Source: Anaerohalosphaeraceae bacterium (lineage in GTDB: Bacteria; Planctomycetota; Phycisphaerae; Sedimentisphaerales; Anaerohalosphaeraceae). From it: a stretch of 64,000 nucleotides of DNA. A model generated the notes under the pieces. That model did no database searches. It saw only the letters and a program-made list of their open reading frames with translations, and was not told where the DNA came from. Shown here in pieces: positions 9,969 through 55,149 of this stretch. Location of the stretch: the NCBI GenBank assembly GCA_050309605.1, contig JBNRMN010000033.1, forward strand, positions 128,001 to 192,000, given 5' to 3'. How positions within the stretch are numbered: the stretch's first letter is position 1; every line of letters begins with the position of its first letter. A program made the translations under genes and the position numbers.

Positions 9969-11099
9969 TTACAGAATTCCGCTTGCACCGGAACGAATCC
10001 CTTTCATTGCCATCTTCAATTCTTCGACATTCGGTGCATATTCCAGCGCCTTTTTCAAATCGATGTATTCTTCTTCGACAAGGCGGCGCAGGCTTTCGGT
10101 AAAGTCCTGCATCCCTTCGCCTTCGCCGGCGCGAATCGCCGCCGGAAGGTCGGACTCACGCTCTTCGCGAATCAGCTTACGCACAATCGGCGTGTTAATC
10201 ATAATTTCCACCGCCGGAACCCGCGGCACATCGGGGCGGATGCCCGGCAGAAGCTGCTGGCTAATGACTGCACGAATGGTCAGCGCAAAGGTCTGACGCG
10301 CCAAGTCTCGCTCTTCCTGCGGGAACATGTCCAAAACACGCTGTATTGTCTGCGAACAATTGTTGGAGTGAAGTGTTCCGAACACCAAGTGTCCGGTTTC
10401 AGCCGCCCGCATCGCAGCGGTCAGGGTCTCGTTGTCTCGGATCTCACCCACCAGTACCACATCCGGGTCCTGACGCATCATACTGCGAAGCGCCTCATCA
10501 AAATTCGGTACGTCAATGCCGATTTCACGCTGGGAGACGATGGATTTTTTGTCCACGTGCAGAAATTCAAGCGGGTCTTCAATCGTTACAATGTGAGCGG
10601 CCGTGGTGCTGTTGATGTGGTCAATCATTGAGGCAATGGTGGTACTCTTGCCCGATCCGGTCGGCCCGGTTACAAGAATCATTCCGTCGTGGCTTTCGGC
10701 GATTTTTTCCACAACGGGCGGGACATGCAGCGTTTCGAACGGAGGAATGCGCCCGCTGATCCGCCGGGCGGCCATGCTCACAAAACTGCGCTGACGAAAG
10801 GCGTTGATACGAAACCGATCCATTTCGCCTACCTGATAGGCAAAATCCAGCGCCCCGTGTTCGAGAAAGTACTGCTTCTGAGCCGGACTCAAAATCTCAA
10901 AGACAAGCTGCTCAATACGTTCCTCGGTCATTACTTCGCCGGTGGTACTTTTCAGTTTGCTGTGGATACGAAGTTTGGGAGGCATTCCGACTTTCAGGTG
11001 GAGGTCACTGGCGTCCGCTTTGATGGCCGCGCGAAACAGCTTTTCGATCTCCGGCGCCTTGTCGGCATGAACATGCGTATCCAGAGGTTGGTTTTTCAT
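9969..11099 (-). CDS. pilT: Type IV pilus retraction ATPase PilT/PilU family
   Basis: ASDLHL, GPTGSGKSTT, TIEDPLE, RQDPDVVLVGEIRD, AETGHLVFGTLH; AGGAG before ATG 11099. Confidence 0.92.
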   Translation of the reverse strand: MKNQPLDTHVHADKAPEIEKLFRAAIKADASDLHLKVGMPPKLRIHSKLKSTTGEVMTEERIEQLVFEILSPAQKQYFLEHGALDFAYQVGEMDRFRINAFRQRSFVSMAARRISGRIPPFETLHVPPVVEKIAESHDGMILVTGPTGSGKSTTIASMIDHINSTTAAHIVTIEDPLEFLHVDKKSIVSQREIGIDVPNFDEALRSMMRQDPDVVLVGEIRDNETLTAAMRAAETGHLVFGTLHSNNCSQTIQRVLDMFPQEERDLARQTFALTIRAVISQQLLPGIRPDVPRVPAVEIMINTPIVRKLIREERESDLPAAIRAGEGEGMQDFTESLRRLVEEEYIDLKKALEYAPNVEELKMAMKGIRSGASGIL

Positions 11100-11374
11100 A
11101 TCGACTCTCCTGACGGCTGACAATTTTACAGATAACAGATGTATTAAGCCTTATATATAGTGCTGTTGCAATCAGCCCCTGTTTTTTCAAAGGCAATTGA
11201 CAGGCCAAAACCTTTATTATGCAATGACAGCCTTGTTCTGTCAATGCAGCAATCCGGATTTATTGGAAAAGAGGATGTTTCTTTTCGTTATAAAATCCTT
11301 TACCGTCGGAGCGAATTGGGGTAAAATACAGGTGAAAAGGCAGATTTGTTGTGATACTGGATAAGGAATAGTCA

Positions 11375-12019
11375 ATGAAAAGGCAGATAACGGTTCTGAT
11401 GATCGGGTTAATGGGGCTTTCGGCTGTTGGGGATGCGGCTTTTCCCACACCGGCGATTGTTCAAAAGCCGACTGAATGGACGCTTTCCGTCCAGTTTGAA
11501 CATCCCCGTCAAATAACGCTGCGTGTACCGGGGCGTCAGGGGCCGGAGCGTTTTTGGTACCTCATTCTGTCGCTGACCAACGACAGCGTCCATGCGGATG
11601 TGCCGTTTGTCCCGACCTGCGAGCTGGTCACGGATAATTTTGAGATTATCCCCGCCGGGTTTGGCATTCCCAAAGGTGTCTTTGAGACGATCAAGCTCAG
11701 ACACCAGGGCAGCTATCCGTTTCTTGAATCGCTGGATTTTAAGGATAACCGGATTCGTCGCGGGGCGGACAACACGCGGGATTTTGTCGTTATCTGGAAA
11801 GATTTTAACCTCAAAGCCAGCGAAGTCAGTTTTTTTATAGCAGGGTTGAGCAATGAAACGACAGCGATTTTGCATCCGACTCGGACCGACGAAGAAGGCA
11901 GCCCCGTTAAGGTGTTTCTGCAAAAGACTCTTCAACTCCGCTATAATGTCGGCGCCGACGCCGCCCGGCGCGATCGGGCTTCTCTTGAATTGATCGGGCG
12001 GGAATGGGTCATGCGGTAA
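11375..12019 (+). CDS. Hypothetical exported protein
   Basis: 214-aa ORF with signal peptide; AAGGA RBS. Confidence 0.7.
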   Translation: MKRQITVLMIGLMGLSAVGDAAFPTPAIVQKPTEWTLSVQFEHPRQITLRVPGRQGPERFWYLILSLTNDSVHADVPFVPTCELVTDNFEIIPAGFGIPKGVFETIKLRHQGSYPFLESLDFKDNRIRRGADNTRDFVVIWKDFNLKASEVSFFIAGLSNETTAILHPTRTDEEGSPVKVFLQKTLQLRYNVGADAARRDRASLELIGREWVMR

Positions 12020-12033
12020 ATTGTCTCGGAGGT

Positions 12034-12061
12034 CAGAAGCCAGAAGCCAGAAGACAGAAGT
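12034..12061. repeat. Heptamer tandem array (CAGAAGN)x4
   Basis: cagaagc cagaagc cagaaga cagaagt just downstream of the stop at 12019. Confidence 0.8.
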
Positions 12062-12104
12062 AAGAATGGCGGCATCGGTCATTTCTGAAATTCAATCGTC
12101 CGGC

Positions 12105-13310
12105 TCAGGCGTTGTGGGTGCGTTTGCAGCGGGGACAGCGGACGGTTCGGTCTTTGTAATCCGGCGGCAGTTTAAGCCGCAACCCGCAGGTACAGGGGAT
12201 GAAGGTAAAGCCGTTGACCTTGCGCATAATATCGCCGACTTGGCGCTGTGAATGTTTCGGAGAAACGGGCTGAGCGGAGGCGTCGCCTTGACGCAGGCCG
12301 ACTTCTTCATCGGGTTTGACTGCTGAGGGGGGGATAACGCTGCCCCGATGGGTCACCTGTTCGAATGCCTGGTTATAATCTCGATACCCGGCCCCGTGAG
12401 CCATAGTGTGCAAAATCCGAATGCGTTCTTCGATAGGCGGGTGTGTACTGAACAGATTCATTGCCTTTTTGCCGCGGAAGGGGTTGGCGATATACATCGG
12501 CGCGGTAGCTTTGTTGGCCGATTCCATTGAAATGTTGGTTCCGGCGATCTTTTCCAGCGCCCCGGCCAGCCCGTGCGGATACCGGGTCAGCCGGACCGCC
12601 CCGGCATCGGCCAGATACTCCCGTTTGCGCGACAGACTGAAATACAAAATCTGGGCAAACAGCGGCGCCAAAATGGCCGCGACAATCGCCAATACCATGA
12701 TCAGCGCCTGCGCTCCGCCGCCGCCACGCGACCGTGAGGAATAGCGTCGCCCGCCCAACGCACTGTAAAACATCCCGCGCAAAAAAACCTGGCTCAGCAG
12801 CACAATCGCTCCGAGCATCACGCCGGCCACCGTGACATACAAGATGTCGCGATGAAGGATATGGCTGATTTCGTGGGCGATGACACCCTGCAATTCGTCG
12901 CGGTTGAGTTTGCCCAGCAGTCCGGCGGTCACCGCCACCGAGGCGTTTTCGGGGTTGCGGCCGGTGGCGAAGGCGTTCGGGGCCGGGTCATTGATGATGT
13001 ATATTTTCGGCATCTTCGGCAGATTGGCCGCGATGGTCATCTCTTCAACGATGTTAAACAGTTGCGGATGGACTTCTTCGGTGACCCGCTGCGCCCGACT
13101 GGAAGCCAGCAGAATCTGATCGCCGCCATACAGACTGACCAGCATCATCACCAGCCAGACGCAGGTGGCAATGAAAATGCCGATCCAGCCGGCATCCGGA
13201 CCGCCCCCGAAGGCGAATCCGAGCATAAACCCCAGTCCGCACAGCACCACCCCCATCAGGCCGAGCAGTATGACCGAATTCCGTTTATTGACGCGAATTT
13301 GTTCCCACAT
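12105..13310 (-). CDS. htpX: M48 zinc metalloprotease HtpX with C-terminal Zn-ribbon
   Basis: PNAFATG, HEISH, SRKREYLADAGA, LFSTHPPIEERI; C-terminal CTCG...CPRC. Confidence 0.92.
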   Translation of the reverse strand: MWEQIRVNKRNSVILLGLMGVVLCGLGFMLGFAFGGGPDAGWIGIFIATCVWLVMMLVSLYGGDQILLASSRAQRVTEEVHPQLFNIVEEMTIAANLPKMPKIYIINDPAPNAFATGRNPENASVAVTAGLLGKLNRDELQGVIAHEISHILHRDILYVTVAGVMLGAIVLLSQVFLRGMFYSALGGRRYSSRSRGGGGAQALIMVLAIVAAILAPLFAQILYFSLSRKREYLADAGAVRLTRYPHGLAGALEKIAGTNISMESANKATAPMYIANPFRGKKAMNLFSTHPPIEERIRILHTMAHGAGYRDYNQAFEQVTHRGSVIPPSAVKPDEEVGLRQGDASAQPVSPKHSQRQVGDIMRKVNGFTFIPCTCGLRLKLPPDYKDRTVRCPRCKRTHNA

Positions 13311-13315
13311 AGTAT

Positions 13316-13350
13316 TAGTTTTAAGTTTTAAGTTTTGAGTTTTGAGTTGT
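13316..13350. repeat. Heptamer array (NAGTTTT)x5, complementary to the array at 13719-13774
   Basis: tagtttt aagtttt aagtttt gagtttt gagttgt. Confidence 0.9.
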
Positions 13351-13701
13351 TGTATTGCCTGTTTTTACGATGCTGGTCAACATTTTTATCAATTCTTTGC
13401 GCTCATTAAGCAGAGAGGTTGACTGTTTGTCGGTCAGAATATCACAATCCGTTAATAATCTTATCCAATAATGCGTTTCTCTGGCCTCCTTCGATGCGAT
13501 TGCCATTTTGTAAAAAATTTCTTTTCGACTGTGGCTGGCGGCGGCCTCTTCGACATTCGCGCCGATGCCGGTTCACGAACGGATCAATTGTCCTGAAAGT
13601 TCATAATGCTGTTTGTCTTTTAACCATAAGCTGAGTTTCACAATGCGAACTGCAAAATGATAACTTTTTTCACGCACCGTATGCCCTGCCTGTACAGTCA
13701 T
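13321..13701 (-). pseudogene. Four-helix-bundle protein (TIGR02436 / 23S rRNA IVS protein family) interrupted by an in-frame TGA at codon 43
   Basis: ATG 13701 reads MTVQAGHTVREKSYHFAVRIVKL...QLIRS*TGIGANVEEA...KMAIASKEARETHYWIRLL; TGA at 13575-13573 replaces the Gly of the family's RSGTSIGAN motif. Confidence 0.85.
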
Positions 13702-13718
13702 TTATCCGACTCAGCACA

Positions 13719-13774
13719 AAAACTAAAAACTAAAAACTAAACACTAAAAACTAAAAACTAAAAACTAAGAACTA
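13719..13774. repeat. Heptamer array (AAAACTA)x8
   Basis: Eight units, two with a single substitution; the unit at 13768-13774 contains the lemA stop codon. Confidence 0.95.
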
Positions 13775-14326
13775 AAATTTAACCTGCGGCACGCTGCGTT
13801 CCGCTTCGTTTTCAATTTCAAAGTAATCGCGTTTGGTGAAATTGAACATCCCGGCAACCAGATTCGACGGGAACATCTGGATTTTATTGTTATAGAACAG
13901 CACCTGGTCGTTGTAGCCCTGGCGTGCGAAGGCGATTTTGTTTTCGGTACTGGTCAGGGTTTCCTGCAGCGACAGGAAATTCTGATTGGCCTTCAGGTCG
14001 GGATAGTTTTCCACGACCAGCATGAACTTGCTCAGCGCCTCGGTCAGTTGCCCCTCGGCCTTGGAGGCCTCGGCAACGCTGTGCGCCCCCATGGCTTTGC
14101 TGCGGGCCTCGGTGATTTTCTCAAACGTCTCCCGCTCGTGTGTCATATAGCCTTTGGCGGTTTCGACCAGATTGGGGATCAAATCGTGTCGCCGCTTGAG
14201 CTGGACGTCGATCTGCGACCAGGCGTTGTCCACCTGATTGCGCAGCCGGACAAGAGCATTGTAAATACCGATAAACAACACCACCAAAAGAACAAGAACA
14301 ATCAGCGCGGTAATTATGCCTGCCAT
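13772..14326 (-). CDS. lemA: LemA family protein
   Basis: N-terminal TM, YNALVRLRN, WSQIDVQLKRRHDLIPNLVET, VENYPDLKANQNF. Confidence 0.95.
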   Translation of the reverse strand: MAGIITALIVLVLLVVLFIGIYNALVRLRNQVDNAWSQIDVQLKRRHDLIPNLVETAKGYMTHERETFEKITEARSKAMGAHSVAEASKAEGQLTEALSKFMLVVENYPDLKANQNFLSLQETLTSTENKIAFARQGYNDQVLFYNNKIQMFPSNLVAGMFNFTKRDYFEIENEAERSVPQVKF

Positions 14327-14419
14327 TTCTTCAGCTCCTGAAAAAGTGAACATTTGGGTTTCGGCTTATGCTTTACAGATGAAAAACGGTGCACTCTGTT
14401 GCACTTGTGTTGCGGAAAT

Positions 14420-14809
14420 TCAGTCTTCCGGCGGGTACATTTCGCGCAACAGATTAGCCACCTTGCCTTCCGGATCAAACGACCCCTGTTCAAGCACGTC
14501 AATCAATTCGCCTCGGTCAAACCACAGGCCGTGTGATTTGGGGCAGCGATCGATCAGCACGGCCTTTTCACCATGTCCGATGAGCACTTTCTGCATCGAT
14601 TTTCGACAGATAGGGCACGGCCGCAGCGTTTCATCGGTATCGGCCGGCTGAAAGGAGCCCAGCAAACGCCGTGTCCGCTCGGCATCTTCCAATAGGATTT
14701 CAAGTTCTCCGGCGTCCAGCCAAATCCCTTGACATTCCGTGCAATAATCCGTTTCGACCTCATCCAGCTCGAAAACGATCATCGGCGTTCGGCAAACAGG
14801 GCACTCCAT
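14420..14809 (-). CDS. Double zinc-ribbon (zf-TFIIB-like) protein
   Basis: CPVC...CTECQGIWLDAGEL repeated as CPIC...CPKSHGLWFDRGEL. Confidence 0.85.
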   Translation of the reverse strand: MECPVCRTPMIVFELDEVETDYCTECQGIWLDAGELEILLEDAERTRRLLGSFQPADTDETLRPCPICRKSMQKVLIGHGEKAVLIDRCPKSHGLWFDRGELIDVLEQGSFDPEGKVANLLREMYPPED

Positions 14810-14924
14810 AGCGGTTATCCTTATAACTAACGTTAATACCCTATCTTAGCGAGGCATTTCGACCTGTCAAGCAAATCCCGCCGCCCGTGCCGAAGAAATT
14901 TTTACAAATTATTCCTTCAAACTA

Positions 14925-14953
14925 TTGACAATTTTTGTCGATTGTGGTATAGA
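14925..14953 (+). promoter_or_regulatory. Sigma70-type promoter upstream of the ilvB leader
   Basis: TTGACA (14925-30), 17 bp spacer, TG-n-TATAGA (14948-53). Confidence 0.7.
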
Positions 14954-15186
14954 ACAAGGATTGTGACAAAGTCGTATCGACGAAACAACGACGCGGCTTT
15001 GGCCTGAGACACGACAATTAAAGAGTGTGGTTTTGGTTCTGCGGTCGGGGCAATTGAACCCGTCCGGATCAGTTTGTTCGCTCGGAGCGAGCAAGCGGGT
15101 CGGTCGGTCAACGCTCATTACCCCGCGGACACTGGAATAACGAAATGTTTATCAGGAATAGGGACAATTTAGTTTCTCCACGACGG

Positions 15187-15215
15187 ATCCGTCTTATCGG
15201 AGACGGGTGTTTTTT
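15187..15215 (+). terminator. Intrinsic terminator ending the ilvB leader
   Basis: ATCCGTCTT-atcg-GAGACGGGT stem followed by G and T6. Confidence 0.65.
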
Positions 15216-15384
15216 GCCTTTCCACTATCCCATTCCCGAACAATTGCTGCGCCCGCTGTGCGGCTTGTGCGGCCTCTTTCCTGTGCGGCGTTCCGCGCCG
15301 CCTGCCTTGCTCAAATCGATTGAACGAATGTGGTATCTATAATGTGAATTATTTTTGAAATTCACCTTTTTTGCGGAGAATAAT

Positions 15385-17103
15385 ATGATTAAAAACAAAA
15401 CAACCCCTCAAGACGGCATCGTCTATAAACCCGGAAGCCAGGTGATGGTCGATATGCTTTTGGAGCAAGGCGTCGAAGTGATGTTCGGCTATCTGGGCGG
15501 GGTGGTGCTGCCGTTTTTTGATAAGCTGTATGATGCGCCGATCAAGTTCATCATCCCCCGCCATGAGCAGGGCGGCTGTCATATGGCTGATGCGTATGCC
15601 CGCGCGACGGGCAAGGTCGGCGTGGTGGTGGCCACCTCCGGCCCGGGCGCGACCAATCTGACGACGGGGCTGGCCACGGCGATGATGGACTCGGTGCCCC
15701 TGGTCGCCATCACGGGGCAGGTGCGGACCGACCTGATCGGAAACGACGCCTTTCAGGAGGCCGATACCACCGGCATCACCCGACCGGTGACCAAGCATAA
15801 TGTCATCGTCAAAGATCCCAACGAGCTGGCCCAGGCGATCCGTGAGGCGTTCTATATTGCTCAAACCGGACGTCCGGGGCCGGTTTTAGTGGATGTGCCG
15901 GTCAATATGCAGATTGCGCAATGTCCGATCCCGCCCAAAAGCGAAATTGAACTGCCGGGGTACAAAGTGCGCTATCAGGGACATTCCCGTCAGATCGCCA
16001 ACGCGGCCCGGGCCATCAATGAATCCAAAAAGCCGGTGCTGTATATCGGCGGCGGGGTCATTCTCTCCGGTGCGTCCGACGCCCTGCGGCAGTTTGCCCA
16101 AAAGGCCAATATCCCCGTTACGATGACGCTGATGGGGCTGGGCGCCTACGATCAGGCGCGGCCTGAATCGCTGGATATGCTGGGCATGCACGGCTCGGCG
16201 TACGCCAATTATGCGGTGCAGAATTGCGATTTGCTGATTTCGGTCGGGGCGCGGTTTGATGACCGTGTGACCGGTTCGCTGAAGACCTTTGCGCCGCATG
16301 CCAAAATCATTCATATTGACATGGATCCGGCCAGTATATCCAAAAACGTGAATGTGGATATTCCGGTCGTCGGCGACGCCCGCGAGGTACTCGAAGCCAT
16401 GATGACCATGGTGGAGTATCGGCCGCGCAAAGAGTGGTTCGAGCAGATCGCCTCCTGGAAGGCCAAGCACCCGTTCCGTTACGATCGCAGCGCCGAGGTC
16501 ATCAAACCGCAGTATGTGATTGAAGAGCTGCACCGTCAAACGCAGGGCAACGCCGTGATCTGCACCGGCGTCGGCCAGCACCAGATGTGGGCGGCGCAGT
16601 TCTACAAATTCAACCATCCGCGGCAGTTGATCACGTCCGGCGGACTGGGGACAATGGGCTTTGGTCTGCCGGCGGCCATCGGCGCCAAATTGGGCTGCCC
16701 CGACCAGACGGTCATCGACATTGACGGCGACAGCAGCTTTAATATGACGCTGACCGAGCTTTCCACGGCCGTCATGTACGACCTGCCGATCAAGGTCTGC
16801 CTGCTCAATAACGGCTTTATGGGGATGGTGCGCCAGTGGCAGGAGCTGTTTTACGGCCGGCGCTATTCGCAGAGCTGCCTTCAGAATCCGGATTTTGCAC
16901 GACTGGCCGAGGCGTTCGGGGTTGTCGGCATCACCGTCGATAAAAAAGACCAGGTGCCTGCGGCAATCGAAAAGATGCTCGAAGAAACCCGTCCGGTCGT
17001 GGTTGATTTTCATGTGGATCCGGAAGAAAACGTCTGGCCGATGGTCCCGGCCGGCAAGAGTCTGCACGAAATGGACGGGCTGGACATTTTTGAAATGGCG
17101 TAA
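15385..17103 (+). CDS. ilvB: Acetolactate synthase large subunit
   Basis: RHEQGG, TSGPGATN, GRPGPVLVD, GARFDDRVTG, SGGLGTMGFG, GDSSFNM, NNGFMGMVRQWQ. Confidence 0.96.
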   Translation: MIKNKTTPQDGIVYKPGSQVMVDMLLEQGVEVMFGYLGGVVLPFFDKLYDAPIKFIIPRHEQGGCHMADAYARATGKVGVVVATSGPGATNLTTGLATAMMDSVPLVAITGQVRTDLIGNDAFQEADTTGITRPVTKHNVIVKDPNELAQAIREAFYIAQTGRPGPVLVDVPVNMQIAQCPIPPKSEIELPGYKVRYQGHSRQIANAARAINESKKPVLYIGGGVILSGASDALRQFAQKANIPVTMTLMGLGAYDQARPESLDMLGMHGSAYANYAVQNCDLLISVGARFDDRVTGSLKTFAPHAKIIHIDMDPASISKNVNVDIPVVGDAREVLEAMMTMVEYRPRKEWFEQIASWKAKHPFRYDRSAEVIKPQYVIEELHRQTQGNAVICTGVGQHQMWAAQFYKFNHPRQLITSGGLGTMGFGLPAAIGAKLGCPDQTVIDIDGDSSFNMTLTELSTAVMYDLPIKVCLLNNGFMGMVRQWQELFYGRRYSQSCLQNPDFARLAEAFGVVGITVDKKDQVPAAIEKMLEETRPVVVDFHVDPEENVWPMVPAGKSLHEMDGLDIFEMA

Positions 17104-17106
17104 GAA

Positions 17107-17198
17107 AAAATCAAAGATCAAAAAGCAAAAATAAAAAATAAGGAAGTCCGGCCCAAAGGGCCGTCCGCTATGTTGATTTTTAACGTTTGATATTTTAT
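17107..17198. repeat. A-rich heptamer array, small GC hairpin, then T-rich complementary heptamers between ilvB and ilvN
   Basis: aaaatca aagatca aaaagca aaaataa aaaataa; cggccc-aaa-gggccg; tgttgat ttttaac gtttgat attttat. Confidence 0.6.
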
Positions 17199-17210
17199 CT
17201 GGAGTAGAAT

Positions 17211-17705
17211 ATGAAGCATATACTGAGTGCATTGGTGTTAAACAAGCCCGGCGTTCTGGCACACGTGGCGGGGATGTTTGCCGCACGGGCTTTTAATATT
17301 GATTCGCTGGCGGTCGGCCGCACCGACGATCCGACCCTGAGCCGAATGACCATCGTGGTCATTGGCGATGACAAAGTCGTCGAGCAGGTTCGCAAACAAT
17401 TGGCCAAAATCGTGCCGGTGGTCAAGGTGCAGGACTTTATCGGCCAGGATGTCGTCGCGCGCGACCTGATGCTGATCAGTGTGACGTGTCCACCTGAAAA
17501 AAGGCCGGAAATGATGGCTTTAATTGAGATGTTTAACGGAAAAGTTGTGGATATTGCCCAAAAAATCGTTATGGTAGAAATTGCCGGTCCGGAAAGTAAG
17601 ATCGAGGCCTTTATCGACGCCTGCCGACCCTACGGCATCAAAAGTATGGTTCGCACCGGCACCGTCGCCATGGCCCGCCAGACACGGACCAAAACCGAGG
17701 AATAG
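17211..17705 (+). CDS. ilvN: Acetolactate synthase small subunit
   Basis: ACT domain NKPGVL...FNIDSLAVG...SRMTIV, VRTGTVAM. Confidence 0.95.
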   Translation: MKHILSALVLNKPGVLAHVAGMFAARAFNIDSLAVGRTDDPTLSRMTIVVIGDDKVVEQVRKQLAKIVPVVKVQDFIGQDVVARDLMLISVTCPPEKRPEMMALIEMFNGKVVDIAQKIVMVEIAGPESKIEAFIDACRPYGIKSMVRTGTVAMARQTRTKTEE

Positions 17706-17812
17706 CCATATAACAGATTAGCGAAATTTTCTGAGTTAATTTTATAAAATATCGAGAGATTTATGATATAGTCAAAAGTGAATAATCTGAAAGTCTGCTG
17801 GACTTAGGCGTT

Positions 17813-17940
17813 GCAACCGAAACCTGCAAATTTTAAACCGCAAACGTCAAGCCAGTGCCCCAAACAGGGGCGCTGTCGGCGTGTTGCGGTAAGGCCTTGC
17901 AGGGCCTCGGTTGCGCATGTTTCGGCGGTGCCTCTTTTTT
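17813..17940 (+). promoter_or_regulatory. Structured RNA leader with two mutually exclusive folds, one ending in a U-tract
   Basis: Rod GCAACCGA/TCGGTTGC, CCTGCAA/TTGCAGG, ACCGCAA/TTGCGGT, CAGTGCCCC/GGGGCGCTG; alternative 13-bp stem 17866-78/17923-35 followed by Ts. Confidence 0.6.
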
Positions 17941-18005
17941 ACGGGGATGGCTCGTGAAAGGAGGGTCAAAATAGGAAAAATCTATTTTGAAAGGAGAGCA
18001 GAAAA

Positions 18006-20816
18006 ATGAAAGAAAGAGTTATTTTTGCATCAAAACATAGTTTCTCTTTGTTAGTTTGGGGCATCTTTTACTTTTGCGGAACGGCGTCTGCTGAATACGA
18101 CTTAGTGCTGACAGGTGTGAATCAGTTTTCAGGTACAGTTTCATACTCTAACAAACTAATTTACATCCCCGAAGATGCATTTGTTCAATATGAAACTTTA
18201 GTGTTGGACAATTGCATTGTTGATGTGGATGGTTTTCTTGAGATCAATACGTTTTTAGATATGCACAACTCCGTTTTCTTTGTTTACGGAAGCTTTAGAG
18301 TAAAACAGGGTGCAACTATCTACAAAACAGGCACATCAAGTATCATCATAACAGGAGACTCTGTACGGTCAGGACATATTTTTATGAAAGGCGGTTTGTA
18401 TGATCCGATCGTCATTGAATCAGACTACACGTCGACAGAATTTATTGTTATTGAGGAAGCTTCCTCGGCGAACTCCGTTTTGCAGTTCATTGATTTTTTC
18501 GGTGGATGGTGCAATATACAGATATATAATAATCGCTTGAATAATGCGATAACCAACTGTCGATTCATTGAATCTGACTACCCAGTTTATCAAGAATCAT
18601 ACGATAAAATAACAGGTGTGCGATTCTGTTTCTTTTTTTGGAATATCATCTCGGTTTATGCCCAAGTGAATGATACCGCTCAAGAGGAAATCGCTTTTAA
18701 GTTTGACAATTTGACAATTGATAACAACTTTGAACCGTCATCATACGGTGTGGTATTGTCTTGTTTGCAAAATCCGGCCTATATTGATTTGGTAGGGATT
18801 ACCAATAACATCCTCACAAACAGTTATTGTGGCTGGTATATTGGTGATGGGGGGTTTTATCCGCCTATAATGTCGAATCTTGCTTACTACGGCAATTACT
18901 TCGATTGCAACTTGGCCGATCCAAATTTTCAGTCTAATCCAATGTATTTAATTGAAAACCCATTCGAAACACCCACAGACCCAAACGATTGGCCGTATTA
19001 TGTTGACCCGAACAGCCCGGTTGCCACCGCAGAGTTAAGAGAAAGCATTTTGCAAAGTCCACAACAAATGCTGACTTCAATATTCAGCGCACCTGTTCCA
19101 CGAGGAAACTTTGGGATTGGATATGGCGTTGCATTGCCTCAAGATTATTATTCAGAAATCGCCGTTGAGATGAGGGGGGATTTTGATAACAATGGAATCG
19201 TTAATTTTGACGATTACTTGATACTCTCGATGGATTGGCTGGCTGAACGAGAATCTCAAGAAAACCCTGTCAATTTTCCGGATCCGAATGGTTACTCTTT
19301 TGCAGACTTTGATTTAGATGGCATTGTGGATGTTAACGACCTCAATCTTTTTGCCAAGAATTGGCTCTGTACTGGAGCCAGGCAAATACGACTGCATGTC
19401 GAAGATACGCCGAATCGTCTGGTTGTTACCTGTAAAGATCCGAATCTTGTGGATGTTGATCATTTTGCCATCTTCTTGGATGAGGAACATGTGGCGACCA
19501 GAGAACCGCAAGACAATGCTGTTTTTATTATTGACAAAAGAAACTTTAAAAATGGAGACCACCAACTCAGAGCTGTTGCTCTCGGTCAGGATGGGAACGC
19601 CTCCGCCACAGCACCGGTTACCTATTCATTTAGCACCCCACTGAGCAACATCACATACGAAAAGTTTCCTGACCCTTCAAAGCCCTTTATTATCAGGGGA
19701 AACATTGCAGAAGGAAACACCGCATTTTTATCTATAAAAGATATTGACGAACAAGTTCAATGGTCTAAAGATTACACCGAGGATTTTGTGACAATCATTG
19801 ATCCCAATGATATATTTGGCAACAATGATGTGAATCTGGAACTTACATACTCTTGCGTACCAACACTTCTGGTAGAATTGAGCCAGGAATCTCCATTCGA
19901 TGAAGTCTTCGAAGAACTGATTAACGCATCATCGGGAAGCTCATCCATTTTAGCACTCGGAGGTAAACCCATAAATGCCGTAGCAGGCCTAGTTATTTGT
20001 ATGTTGGCGGATGGGGCAACACAAGGTGCAAACTATACAGACACAGGAACCGCCAGATTTGCATGGCAAACAATGAAAAACAAAGGCATACAGGTCATAG
20101 CACTTAAGGGATATGGCGAACATAATCAAGTATCATACGATATAATTCACAGTGTCCGAAGAAAGTTTCCAAATATTCGATACCTGCATATCAACGCACA
20201 TGGGCATTACAGGGCAAGAAAAGCATGGTCGTTGTTGAGAACTCCGCGAACTCGCGTTTTATTTAATGATGGGATTTGGGTATCTCACAATTCCAGAAGG
20301 TGGCTTGACCGAAATCGATCTGTACCAGAAGGCTATCAATATCTATCACGTTCTTTAGAAAAGGCTTATACATTTGATCACTTTGGATTTCGTCCCGGAG
20401 ACATTCGAATACTGGTGCTTGAATCCTGTTACGGCCTTCGCAATGTGGCAACAATGAATGCTGAATTGATCGTTGACTATGTAGACGGGGCTTATGATTA
20501 TGAAAAAAGTTTTAATCCGCCTCTTAATTTTCACCCACATTACTATTTTACCGATGTATTATTTGCTTTCAGAATGGTCGAAGATTATCAAGTGGCCGTT
20601 GGTTCAGCAAATTTGGTTGTTAAAGGATTGTTTACTCATTATGCAAATTTTTTCAATATGTTGTATCAAAATCTTGAGACTAAGAATTTCTATAATGCTT
20701 ATAGTGATACCGTATACCACATAACCAATCAAGAGGTAAAGAGTGAACATAGAGTACGCGGATTAGGCTTAAATCCGCAAAGCAATGTCTGGCTTAGCAA
20801 CAACCCAACCCCCTGA
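18006..20816 (+). CDS. Large secreted multidomain protein: beta-helix-like N-terminus, two dockerin-like repeats, Ig-like segment, C-terminal caspase/gingipain-like HG...SC domain
   Basis: Signal peptide ending ASA-E; RGDFDNNGIVNFDDYLILSMDWL and FADFDLDGIVDVNDLNLFAKNWL; YLHINAHGH and ILVLESCY; AAGGAG RBS. Confidence 0.7.
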   Translation: MKERVIFASKHSFSLLVWGIFYFCGTASAEYDLVLTGVNQFSGTVSYSNKLIYIPEDAFVQYETLVLDNCIVDVDGFLEINTFLDMHNSVFFVYGSFRVKQGATIYKTGTSSIIITGDSVRSGHIFMKGGLYDPIVIESDYTSTEFIVIEEASSANSVLQFIDFFGGWCNIQIYNNRLNNAITNCRFIESDYPVYQESYDKITGVRFCFFFWNIISVYAQVNDTAQEEIAFKFDNLTIDNNFEPSSYGVVLSCLQNPAYIDLVGITNNILTNSYCGWYIGDGGFYPPIMSNLAYYGNYFDCNLADPNFQSNPMYLIENPFETPTDPNDWPYYVDPNSPVATAELRESILQSPQQMLTSIFSAPVPRGNFGIGYGVALPQDYYSEIAVEMRGDFDNNGIVNFDDYLILSMDWLAERESQENPVNFPDPNGYSFADFDLDGIVDVNDLNLFAKNWLCTGARQIRLHVEDTPNRLVVTCKDPNLVDVDHFAIFLDEEHVATREPQDNAVFIIDKRNFKNGDHQLRAVALGQDGNASATAPVTYSFSTPLSNITYEKFPDPSKPFIIRGNIAEGNTAFLSIKDIDEQVQWSKDYTEDFVTIIDPNDIFGNNDVNLELTYSCVPTLLVELSQESPFDEVFEELINASSGSSSILALGGKPINAVAGLVICMLADGATQGANYTDTGTARFAWQTMKNKGIQVIALKGYGEHNQVSYDIIHSVRRKFPNIRYLHINAHGHYRARKAWSLLRTPRTRVLFNDGIWVSHNSRRWLDRNRSVPEGYQYLSRSLEKAYTFDHFGFRPGDIRILVLESCYGLRNVATMNAELIVDYVDGAYDYEKSFNPPLNFHPHYYFTDVLFAFRMVEDYQVAVGSANLVVKGLFTHYANFFNMLYQNLETKNFYNAYSDTVYHITNQEVKSEHRVRGLGLNPQSNVWLSNNPTP

Positions 20817-33706: not shown

Positions 33707-33778
33707 TACCCGGTGGTGTAATCGGTAACACAGAGGTTTTTGGTACCTCTATTCCAGGTTCGAGTCCTGGCCGGGTAG
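33707..33778 (+). tRNA. tRNA-Gln (anticodon TTG), CCA not encoded
   Basis: Acceptor TACCCGG/CCGGGTA, anticodon arm AGAGG-TTTTGGT-(A)CCTCT, T-arm CCAGG-TTCGAGT-CCTGG. Confidence 0.93.
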
Positions 33779-33824: not shown

Positions 33825-34901
33825 ATGGTTGAAATTGCTGCTGTGATATTGGCCGCCGGGCAAAGCACTCGGATGAACACCCGTATCCCGAAGGTGCTGC
33901 ACGAGGTGTGCGGACGCCCGATGCTTGAGTGGGTCTTGTCGGCCTGCCGGGCGGCGGGAGTTACAAAGCATTATGTCATCGTTGGTTACGGCAAAGACCA
34001 GATCGTCGCCAAGTACCGCGATGACAGGGATGTGGTCTTTGTCGAGCAGACCGAGCAGCGCGGCACGGGACATGCGGTGATGTGCTGTCAGAACCACCTG
34101 AAGGATTTTTCGGGCTTGACACTGGTGCTGTGCGGCGATGCTCCGCTGATCCGCACGAAGACAATTAACATATTGATCGAAAAGCACTTACAGGAAAAAT
34201 CCGCGGTCACGCTGGCGACCGCCAAATTGAGCGACCCGACCGGCTACGGGCGGATTGTCCGCGACGGTTACGGCAATATCCAGGGCATCGTCGAGCACAA
34301 TGACTGTACGCCGGAGCAGCGGGTTATTTCGGAGATCAATCCGGGGTATTTCTGTTTCAATACGCCGCTGCTGCTGGGGGCGCTGAGCAAGATTACCCCG
34401 AATAATAAGAAAAATGAGTATTATCTGACCGATGCGCTGCACATTCTGCTGGCTGACGGATGCAAGGCCACGGCAGTGACTGCGGTGGCCGAGGAAGACG
34501 CGATGGGCGTGAACAATCGTCAGCAGCTCTCGGCGGCCGGTAAAATTATGCAGCAGCGGATACAGGAACGGCTGATGGCCGACGGCGTTACGATTGTCGA
34601 TCCGGTCAACACGTGGATCGACGCCCGCGCCGAGATCGGTCAGGACACCATCATCGAGCCGTTTACCTATCTGCACGGCCCCATTAAAATCGGCGCCAAC
34701 AGTCGTATCGGTGCCGGCTGCGTAACAACCGATCCAACCGGCGAGGGCAAGGCCGCTATTGTCATCGGCAATGAGGTCTATATTGGTCCCGGTTCGGTGC
34801 TCAAGGCGCCGGCGTCGATAGAAGACGGCCGTATCGTGGCCCCCGGCTCGGTTATTGGAGATGCCCAACAGAAGATGTCCGGAGAGAACGCCGATGCTTA
34901 A
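33825..34901 (+). CDS. glmU: GlmU-like UDP-GlcNAc pyrophosphorylase with short hexapeptide C-terminus
   Basis: LAAGQSTRM...PKVLH, GTGHAV, GYGRIVR, EYYLTD, GVNNR. Confidence 0.85.
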   Translation: MVEIAAVILAAGQSTRMNTRIPKVLHEVCGRPMLEWVLSACRAAGVTKHYVIVGYGKDQIVAKYRDDRDVVFVEQTEQRGTGHAVMCCQNHLKDFSGLTLVLCGDAPLIRTKTINILIEKHLQEKSAVTLATAKLSDPTGYGRIVRDGYGNIQGIVEHNDCTPEQRVISEINPGYFCFNTPLLLGALSKITPNNKKNEYYLTDALHILLADGCKATAVTAVAEEDAMGVNNRQQLSAAGKIMQQRIQERLMADGVTIVDPVNTWIDARAEIGQDTIIEPFTYLHGPIKIGANSRIGAGCVTTDPTGEGKAAIVIGNEVYIGPGSVLKAPASIEDGRIVAPGSVIGDAQQKMSGENADA

Positions 34902-54577: not shown

Positions 54578-54609
54578 ATGGAGAATTTAGAATTTAGAAT
54601 TGTATAGGA

Positions 54610-55149
54610 ATGCTCAGCTCGGATAAATCGTGTCTGGTCGTGATTGATGTACAGGAGAAACTGGCCGCGGTGATGCACGAATCGGCGGGGATGGTTTCCA
54701 ATTGCGTCGTCCTGGTGCGAATTGCCCGCACGCTGGATATGCCTGTGTTGTGGTGTCAGCAGTATCCCGAAGGCATCGGGCCGACGGTTGAGCCGCTGCG
54801 GGAGCATTTGAGCGGCATCGAACCGATAAACAAGCGGTGCTTTAGCTGCGTCGGGCATCCGGATTTTTCGGCCAGGCTCGAACAGCTCAATGTCGAAACG
54901 GCGATCTTGTGCGGCATTGAAACCCACGTCTGTGTCTTTCAAAGCGCGATGGAACTGATGCAAAAAGGTCTGTATGTCCACGTCATCGCCGATGCCGTTG
55001 CCTCGCGGACGCCGGCGAATAAACATCTCGGCCTGAATCGTATGGCCGCGTCCGGTGCGGTCATCAGTTCAACGGAAATGCTTCTGTTTGAATTGCTGCG
55101 AAGTGCCGAGCATCCGCACTTCAAGACACTCAGCAAGCTGATTCGGTGA
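54610..55149 (+). CDS. Isochorismatase-family hydrolase
   Basis: VIDVQEKL, QYPEGIGPT, K..FSC, GIETHVCV, ADAVASR. Confidence 0.9.
   Translation: MLSSDKSCLVVIDVQEKLAAVMHESAGMVSNCVVLVRIARTLDMPVLWCQQYPEGIGPTVEPLREHLSGIEPINKRCFSCVGHPDFSARLEQLNVETAILCGIETHVCVFQSAMELMQKGLYVHVIADAVASRTPANKHLGLNRMAASGAVISSTEMLLFELLRSAEHPHFKTLSKLIR

Follow-up and report, generated by a model that had tools for sequence, protein, structure and literature searches.

In the genome of an Anaerohalosphaeraceae bacterium, the genes lemA and htpX are separated by a cassette that consists of a four-helix-bundle (4HB) gene of the PF05635/TIGR02436 family and two arrays of tandem heptamers, one on either side, which are reverse complements of each other. 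The cassette lies in a 64,000-nt stretch of DNA (assembly GCA_050309605.1, contig JBNRMN010000033.1, positions 128,001-192,000 of the forward strand), which is referred to below as the window and by whose own numbering its features are given. Comparison with related loci indicates that the window locus is one nonsense-bearing copy of a widespread composite element, made up of a promoterless PF05635 open reading frame (ORF) and two arrays, or arms, of ~ 4-5 complementary heptamers each. It is highly probable that ORF and arms form such an element family-wide, and the best reading of the cassette is that it would correspond, by analogy, to the ORF-bearing intervening sequences known from 23S rRNA, but with an operon as its host. 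As to the arms themselves, the chances are about even that they act as an RNA stem, which would either be processed or couple the flanking genes.

The cassette between lemA and htpX

On the minus strand, and listed in coding order, the locus comprises the following features.

14353..13772, minus strand: lemA, 193 aa (ORF list; PF04011 LemA, E 3.3e-65)
13774-13772, minus strand: stop codon TAG of lemA, which is unit 1 of the upstream array (sequence)
13718..13777, minus strand: upstream arm, (TAGTTTT)x8 (Tandem Repeats Finder: period 7, 8.6 copies, 92% matches)
13321..13701, minus strand: 4HB ORF, 126 codons, ATG at 13701, TAA at 13323-13321 (PF05635/TIGR02436; in-frame TGA)
13317..13348, minus strand: downstream arm, (AAAACTN)x5 (Tandem Repeats Finder: period 7, 4.6 copies, 96% matches)
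12105..13310, minus strand: htpX, M48 zinc metalloprotease, 401 aa (PF01435, E 1.5e-34; NF003425, E 5.2e-96, below the NF003425 cut-off)

Read on the coding strand, the eight units of the upstream arm are TAGTTCT, three times TAGTTTT, TAGTGTT and again three times TAGTTTT (2 of 8 imperfect). Their consensus unit is AGTTTTT, which includes an A[AG]TT core, and a spacer of 16 nt leads from this arm to the ATG of the 4HB ORF. At its other end the ORF runs into the downstream array, within which its stop codon TAA falls, and after the last downstream unit only 5 nt (ATACT) precede the ATG of htpX at 13310. This arrangement had been described in a first-pass annotation of the window, and the description is correct in every detail that could be checked (by means of the sequence itself, Tandem Repeats Finder and an inverted-repeat search). 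That holds as well for the complementarity of the arms in several pairing registers: 13315-13353 is reverse-complementary to 13716-13754 over 39 nt (85%), two more registers extend over 37 nt (84%), and the arrays pair in silico. No promoter-like or terminator-like site was found on the minus strand of the lemA-htpX interval, nor inside the cassette. A scan of 11000-19000 against Rfam matched no family, rRNA included; the cassette sits between lemA and htpX, not in an rRNA gene. It contains the one PF05635 gene of the window (tblastn).

With its in-frame TGA read through as X, the 4HB ORF matches PF05635 with an E of 2.2e-23 (82.9 bits, cut-off 33.8) and TIGR02436 with an E of 1.7e-26 (92.6 bits, cut-off 24). 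The TGA is codon 43 (13575-13573, minus strand), at which 34/34 aligned relatives have glycine, and it probably goes back to a one-base change from GGA. The remainder of the ORF is well conserved (the intact relative P0002 is 95% identical to it) and the arms are intact. Three accounts of the window copy are possible: pseudogene, sequencing error or read-through. Decoding of TGA as glycine (NCBI table 25) was considered and rejected: TGA ends ordinary ORFs of the window, e.g. the zinc-ribbon gene at 14420, so that, barring a sequencing error at this base, the copy is a pseudogene. Of the motif RxxxSxxxNxxE, which is a portion of the GxxRxxxSxxxNxxE reported for the family (PMC3936711), R41, N49 and E52 are present, and position S45 is glycine both in the window copy and in the intact P0002 and P0100.

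In composition the ORF stands apart from its neighbours, with a GC content of 0.41 (lemA 0.52, htpX 0.59) and a GC content at third codon positions of 0.42 (lemA 0.69, htpX 0.71). Its C-terminal tail, ...QNSKLKT, is translated repeat, and many relatives carry tails such as ...KNSKLKTKN or ...QLKTKNS, i.e. translated AAAACTN-type heptamers; these tails gave the first hint that the arrays belong with the 4HB gene. They also bear on annotation, as the arrays lengthen the reading frames of the cassette and of its neighbours.

Heptamer arrays around related genes

At least 603 genome stretches matched the family patterns, with at least 575 encoding relatives, and the best 80 yielded 78 distinct loci from many phyla, which together with the window makes 79 4HB genes. 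Genes of PF05635/TIGR02436 are abundant, 4026 near-length relatives being listed at E <= 1e-5. Organism names of the loci are the labels of the records, for the most part metagenome-assembled genomes (MAGs), and the gene calls inside the loci are longest-ORF calls. A flank was taken to hold an array at a lag-7 score of at least 10, with genes whose flank is cut by a contig end counted as misses, and 600 ORFs of at least 150 aa from the same DNA served as control, some of which adjoin 10 extra 4HB copies (found by profile search).

Inspection of the flanking sequences showed, for most loci, heptamers ahead of the start codon and their complements at or beyond the stop. Measured by the score, arrays lie upstream of 45 of the 79 4HB genes and downstream of 55, with 36 genes having them on either side, compared with 29, 30 and 3 of the 600 control ORFs. 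When periods from 3 to 12 were compared, the best one was 7 in 44/47 upstream and in all 55 downstream arrays. Conversely, more than half of the period-7 arrays in the 1,160,704 bases of locus DNA (132/235) lie within 150 nt of a 4HB ORF. Looking for inverted 7-mer arrays around other family members had been proposed in the first-pass annotation as a check of its idea, and the outcome is positive across many phyla.

The complementarity of the arms was measured with an ungapped score in the 73 loci with complete flanks. At a threshold of at least 16, complementary arms were found for 42/73 own pairs, compared with 63/584 pairs made across loci and 3/250 other genes. Duplex energies of the 150-nt flanks had been tried as a measure but were dropped, as the separation was weak (medians -60.0 for own pairs and -52.7 for other genes) because GC-rich coding flanks dominate, and the ungapped score was used instead.

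Sixteen unit types occur among the upstream arms, e.g. AATTACG, AATTAGG, AATTAAG, AATTATG, AATTAGT, AATTTTT, AGTTTTT, AGTTTTG and AGTTAGG. What they share is the A[AG]TT core, which is present in 48/51 upstream arrays and, as its reverse complement, in 57/58 downstream arrays. The consensus units of the two arms are exact complements in 26/41 loci and at most 1 base apart in 37/41. Shuffling the arm pairings gave a mean of 4.3 exact complements and a maximum of 12 in 5000 shuffles, or, with shuffling confined to the unit class, a mean of 8.1 (maximum 17); the observed number is above these values, which means that the two arms co-vary.

An array usually has 4-5 units (medians 4.4 upstream and 4.3 downstream), and rare long arrays reach up to 47 units. 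Very long arrays were seen in L024 (~ 228-560, the 47 units upstream), L026 (~ 2420-2548), L047 (upstream of 5907) and L066 (3445-3483); in L024 the predicted ORF start lies within the array. The length of the arrays looks unstable. The G-containing arm is the 5' arm and the C-containing arm the 3' arm in 56 of 74 array pairs, with the opposite order in 2. Since an inverted repeat reads alike on either strand, this polarity describes only the orientation of the units towards the centre and not the strand. Its use as a test of strand specificity was therefore dropped, as it says nothing on RNA versus DNA.

In total 90 complementary array pairs were found, of which 74 enclose a 4HB ORF and 16 are ORF-less. 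All but one of the latter (15/16) are hairpins with loops of 10-105 nt, often located between a stop and a start codon. Several loci have more than one 4HB gene within 20 kb (three copies in L032, two or three in L022, L048, L061 and L068), and tandem 4HB genes that share one array were seen in L066 (2641-3444) and L030 (9519-10393).

Genomic contexts and descent

The gene next to a 4HB gene is mostly on the same strand, both upstream (67/71 loci) and downstream (61/73). In 34/47 loci, the start of the upstream array is no more than 10 nt away from the stop codon of the preceding gene, the median distance being -2 (i.e. the stop lies inside the first unit, as it does for lemA). The distance from the end of the downstream array to the following ATG is -3 to 15 nt in 31/47 loci (median 6, with the window at 6 by the same measure). 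Given this filling of the space from stop to start, the same-strand neighbours and the lack of a promoter-like or terminator-like site in the window copy, the cassette appears to be dependent on the transcription of its host. With inverted heptamers, a common core, co-varying arms and stop-to-start placement, the architecture is fixed enough to provide a testable unit for the family.

The hosts themselves are diverse, as the upstream neighbours (n = 71) belong to many unrelated families. The order LemA-4HB-M48 of the window recurs in L001, L002, L003 and L014, i.e. in four other Planctomycetota MAGs, which are labelled Planctomycetales, Phycisphaerales and Pirellulales. Units vary between these copies with the arms still complementary: AGTTTTT in the window, L003 and L014, AATTATG in L001, and AATTTTT in L002. 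All of the lemA-context copies seen are filled (5/5), in a set of loci that was collected via the 4HB ORF and in which empty spacers were not searched for. The wording of the first-pass annotation, by which the cassette was inserted between these two genes, does not hold in the sense of a local event, because the same gene order in four other Planctomycetota MAGs of different orders means that it is not a private or recent insertion of the window genome. The lemA-4HB-htpX arrangement is old, or the site is used repeatedly. The nearest relatives of HtpX and of the 4HB protein bear names from Planctomycetota and Phycisphaerae MAGs, and six pairs of 4HB and HtpX relatives have an equal longest-contig size (29921, 12712, 49621, 4648, 3860 and 5395), a weak hint that the two genes may share contigs in more Planctomycetota than the four loci.

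Among the other contexts, a Cys/Met pyridoxal phosphate (PLP) enzyme is found upstream of the 4HB gene in L005, L007, L008, L009, L013, L016, L031 and L077, and NifU downstream of it was confirmed in seven loci, including L010. The order X-4HB-aminotransferase occurs in seven Verrucomicrobiota loci, and SecA-4HB-DeoC in Chitinophagaceae. In a quick maximum-likelihood tree of the 79 proteins, built on 129 columns and with many of its forks unresolved, the Planctomycetota copies cluster together, with a support of 84 in the Shimodaira-Hasegawa-like approximate likelihood ratio test (SH-aLRT). The copies between PLP enzyme and NifU form a clade (91) that is nested with the lemA-htpX copies L003 and L014 (98), which suggests copying to a second spacer. 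The SecA-DeoC spacer, in turn, is occupied by two separate 4HB lineages (SH-aLRT 99 each) with different units (AATTAGT in L039 and L067, AGTTAGG in L069 and L074), which suggests cassette replacement or one site being used repeatedly.

Elsewhere in the tree, rows of distant phyla are intermixed. Of its two main protein clades, one has 25 T-type, 5 A-type and 3 other units and the other 35 A-type and no T-type units, so that the unit class tracks the protein clade and not the host phylum; this holds within Bacteroidota, Planctomycetota and Verrucomicrobiota. Moreover, the GC content of the 4HB ORF is below that of its flanks in 71/72 loci (median difference -0.071). That ORF and arms behave as one unit, in line with the cassette idea of the first-pass annotation, is supported by all three observations, i.e. 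by the unrelated operon contexts, the low GC content and the unit class that follows the protein clade. Occurrence of the same unit in unrelated contexts, together with a foreign composition, is also a trait of mobile elements.

Some of the contexts are of the restriction-modification or defence-island type, which accounts for the upstream neighbour in 9/71 4HB loci: RhuM (L023, L056), Fic (L041, L042, L057), HsdM (L028), an Eco57I-type methylase (L051), DndB (L027) and an SNF2/PLD helicase (L048). The 4HB cassettes seem to be frequent passengers in defence-type operons. In addition, PF05635 genes have been placed 'in' cas operons. One of them lies between cmr3 and cmr2, from which it is separated by ~ 85 and 5 nt (PMC3936711), and for such reports the heptamer-cassette architecture offers another reading.

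Possible roles of the arms, and other features of the window

If the arms do act as an RNA stem, the cassette would be transcribed together with lemA and htpX, and the U-rich 5' arm would pair with the A-rich 3' arm, for which several registers are available. Such pairing would loop out the 4HB ORF and place the stop codon of lemA beside the start codon of htpX, and the nucleotides immediately ahead of the htpX ATG would be double-stranded. As a long imperfect duplex, the stem would be a substrate for RNase III, as it is in the rRNA versions, and would probably be cut. The two cistrons would then come apart, and what remains ahead of htpX would be a short A-rich leader. Control of htpX translation by the stem, as put forward in the first-pass annotation, would likewise be a putative effect of the pairing. 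It is proposed that the element may be tolerated inside operons as a result of this looping out and cleavage.

Statements on RNA pairing and folds are predictions throughout. In the minimum-energy fold of 13296-13795 (minus strand) the arrays are paired with each other. In the ensemble, 24.6 of the 32 bases of the downstream array are paired to the upstream array (summed over registers), compared with a mean of 14.4 and a maximum of 21.8 for 20 shuffled arrays. These inter-array pairing probabilities were used in place of the z-score of the whole fold, which is not significant.

A number of observations weigh against a stem that acts in RNA. The 500-nt fold as a whole is no better than that of shuffled sequences (z -0.77) and its centroid retains only 6 outer pairs; the arrays by themselves reach no more than -18.8 kcal/mol, in an A-U-rich duplex with one mismatch per heptamer. 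Among the arm mismatches in 50 loci, G.U (22) is not in excess of A.C (17; p 0.52), which means that selection for a helix in the sense-strand RNA is not demonstrated. RNase III requires neither a 7-nt period nor an A[AG]TT core, so that processing of a stem leaves the nature of the repeats unexplained. By the threshold used, 34/79 4HB genes are without an upstream array and 24/79 without a downstream array, and the 78 loci represent the nearest relatives of the window protein by similarity rank (the best 80 of at least 575) rather than the whole of PF05635. Lastly, the pairing of the arms is predicted, and their cleavage inferred.

It was in intervening sequences of 23S rRNA that the 4HB family first became known. 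The link between this protein family and intervening sequences that are excised from 23S rRNA by RNase III, which the first-pass annotation had drawn, is documented, including for one of them tandem heptamers before the ORF (PMC4990558). In this case, that of Coxiella burnetii, an S23p ORF lies between terminal inverted repeats that form a 28-bp stem, within which RNase III cuts in vitro, and immediately in front of the ATG there are two or three tandem GACAGAT heptamers plus a degenerate one, the cut falling on the first repeat (PMC4990558). The heptamers are reported as strain variation, deletion and substitutions of the ORF are reported too, and in the authors' conclusion the RNA part is more important than the protein (PMC4990558).

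The 23S rRNA elements (of Leptospira, Coxiella and others) are thus like the window cassette in having an ORF of the PF05635/'S23p' family within complementary ends that form a long stem, and a GC content below that of their host. For Coxiella the likeness extends to heptamers directly before the ATG, in the region cut by RNase III, and to an ORF that decays while the RNA part stays (deletion and substitutions there, a nonsense codon in the window; PMC4990558). Unlike the rRNA elements, which are hosted by an rRNA helix, the window copy is hosted by a spacer between protein genes, and it runs exactly from a stop codon to a start codon. Its arms consist almost wholly of heptamers with the A[AG]TT core, compared with the GACAGAT unit of Coxiella, and excision is documented for the rRNA versions but here only inferred. 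The shared architecture ties the rRNA elements, of which purpose and origin have been open since their discovery (PMC4990558), to copies inside protein-coding operons, in a family that is still described as functionally uncharacterized (bioRxiv 10.1101/2024.02.27.582315). In the literature searched, which leaves most subscription journals aside, no paper was found that describes inverted heptamer arrays around this 4HB family outside rRNA.

It is also conceivable, if somewhat unlikely, that the arms act on DNA, as the terminal inverted repeats of a mobile cassette, i.e. as iterons (for a recombinase, a transposase or the 4HB protein) or as attC-like single-strand folds. Complementarity would then reflect the making or the recognition of the ends, with the RNA stem as a by-product. 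Such a role would agree with the A[AG]TT core being kept and with the fixed polarity towards the centre (56/74 versus 2), with the typical number of 4-5 units per array, and with the absence of a G.U bias among the mismatches. It would agree as well with an element that occurs in many unrelated contexts with an ORF below its flanks in GC (71/72 loci), that has ORF-less inverted hairpins in the same genomes (16/90 pairs), that was seemingly copied to a new site (the PLP-enzyme-to-NifU copies nested among the lemA-htpX copies, SH-aLRT 98), and of which two protein lineages with different units occupy the secA-deoC spacer. On the other hand, the cassettes are not linked to any gene for a recombinase or transposase in the contexts examined, and no target-site duplication is evident in the sequence around the window copy. 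The lemA-htpX site is kept in four other MAGs, which argues for long residence over frequent movement, and exact stop-to-start placement with co-orientation is expected of a transcribed element, not of a generic transposon.

Paired heptamer arrays have in fact been interpreted as protein-binding sites before, in Geobacter metallireducens (PMC2700814). Its class 3 elements (Gmet_I301-I308) are eight inverted pairs of five tandem heptanucleotides, ~ 75-115 bp apart, which occupy spacers such as proB-proA and resemble the ORF-less hairpins of the present survey (PMC2700814). They differ in their unit, MTYCTGA, and in the reading given to them, namely that of sites for an unidentified global regulator or for IHF/HU; a link to four-helix-bundle genes is not drawn, 'S23' and 'four-helix' being absent from the main text and from those supplementary files that were searched (12 of 19; PMC2700814).

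Like the present element, integron attC cassettes and the hairpins of miniature inverted-repeat transposable elements (MITEs) or repetitive extragenic palindromes (REP) are short promoterless units with imperfect inverted repeats, which are co-oriented in transcription units and also occur without an ORF. Unlike integron cassettes, however, the present element has neither an integrase nor an attI platform; it has tandem simple repeats on both sides instead of a single 3' attC, and one protein family as its cargo.

Decidedly improbable, in comparison with an RNA stem, is a protein-RNA switch in which a putative pentameric 4HB ring, comparable to HutP or TRAP, binds array RNA in single-stranded form, with each subunit reading one heptamer. 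Binding to one arm would prevent or resolve the stem, and in this way set translation or stability for both the ORF and the gene downstream of it. Consistent with a ring, the structure entries of the two solved relatives, 2RLD (E 8.9e-38) and 2GSC, hold five chains each, and a Xanthomonas member of the family is described as a toroidal homopentamer (cited in PMC4990558). The arrays would suit such a reader, as 4-5 units are commonest and a 4-nt core is repeated every 7 nt, and hexameric HutP, which binds XAG triplets, has mapped sites that are 7 nt apart as well (U498/U505/U512; PMC2425495). The unit class that tracks the protein clade inside Bacteroidota, Planctomycetota and Verrucomicrobiota points in the same direction, but it is equally explained by common descent of ORF and arms. 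The ORF of the window copy is broken with its arms kept, and ORF-less hairpins exist, so that the protein would have to act in trans; both count against the switch.

A precedent for a nucleic acid-binding assembly of this fold is Avd, which binds nucleic acid and is pentameric. The 4HB family is homologous to it in fold and family, Avd being the accessory variability determinant of diversity-generating retroelements (PMC10053308). The setting is different, however: no reverse transcriptase, template or variable repeat adjoins the cassette, which has LemA and an M48 protease as its immediate neighbours and a zinc-ribbon protein further out (the rest of the window was not screened for reverse transcriptase), and apart from the heptamer arms 13200-13900 contains no long repeats. 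To our knowledge, such arms are not a described feature of diversity-generating retroelements. It is imaginable, though quite unlikely, that 4HB protein and arms together would be a self-contained RNA device, whose ring would read about five heptamers (A[AG]UU) on one arm, decide on pairing and cutting of the arms and, on account of the homology with Avd, perhaps aid copying of the stem-loop into new RNA-exposed loops, be they operon spacers or rRNA helices. If this were true, orphan 4HB genes, rRNA intervening sequences, the paired arrays of Geobacter and perhaps the short tandemly repeated repetitive (STRR) sequences of cyanobacteria would be one element family. STRR heptamers are tandem heptanucleotide arrays in transcribed spacers of heterocystous cyanobacteria; we know of no tie between them and the 4HB gene family, and none of the 78 loci examined is cyanobacterial.

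The remaining explanation, by which the arrays are independent simple-sequence spacers (A-rich leaders, or heptamers that give stops in three frames) with incidental complementarity, is extremely improbable and already disfavoured: a stop-containing heptamer does close all three frames within 21 nt, and four other single period-7 arrays do occur in short spacers of the window, three of them directly 5' of start codons, but none of these four has a complementary partner, whereas the 4HB arms co-vary over 16 unit types, show complementarity much more frequently than do the flanks of other genes, and belong to arrays that are concentrated at 4HB genes. The four arrays are the following.

12034-12066: period-7 array CAGAAGC, between convergent genes
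17106-17141: period-7 array AAAAATC, in the spacer from ilvB to the next gene, directly 5' of a start codon
33787-33817: period-7 array AAAAGGT, between tRNA-Gln (33707-33778) and an ORF starting at 33826, directly 5' of the start
54582-54601: period-7 array AGAATTT, directly 5' of an ORF starting at 54610

Within 600 nt, no partner above the null of random pieces was found for any of them. They may represent solo arms, or else a habit that this genome has independently. For the ilvB-ilvN spacer (17100-17200), a hairpin without an ORF was considered but dropped, its fold being weak (z -1.65) and without a partner above the null.

The genes on either side of the cassette have some features of their own. 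Upstream of lemA, a gene at 14420-14809 (minus strand) encodes a protein of 129 aa with two TFIIB-type zinc ribbons (PF13453, E 6.2e-25, in two stretches), and a terminator-like hairpin (14404-14389) lies between this gene and lemA. The C-terminal ~ 95 residues of HtpX (12105-12400, minus strand) form an extension past the Pfam domain, whose end is close to residue 302 of 401. This extension ends in a CxC...CxxC pattern (..FIPCTCGLRL...VRCPRCKRTHNA) that looks like a small zinc ribbon, and the relatives of this HtpX are equally long.

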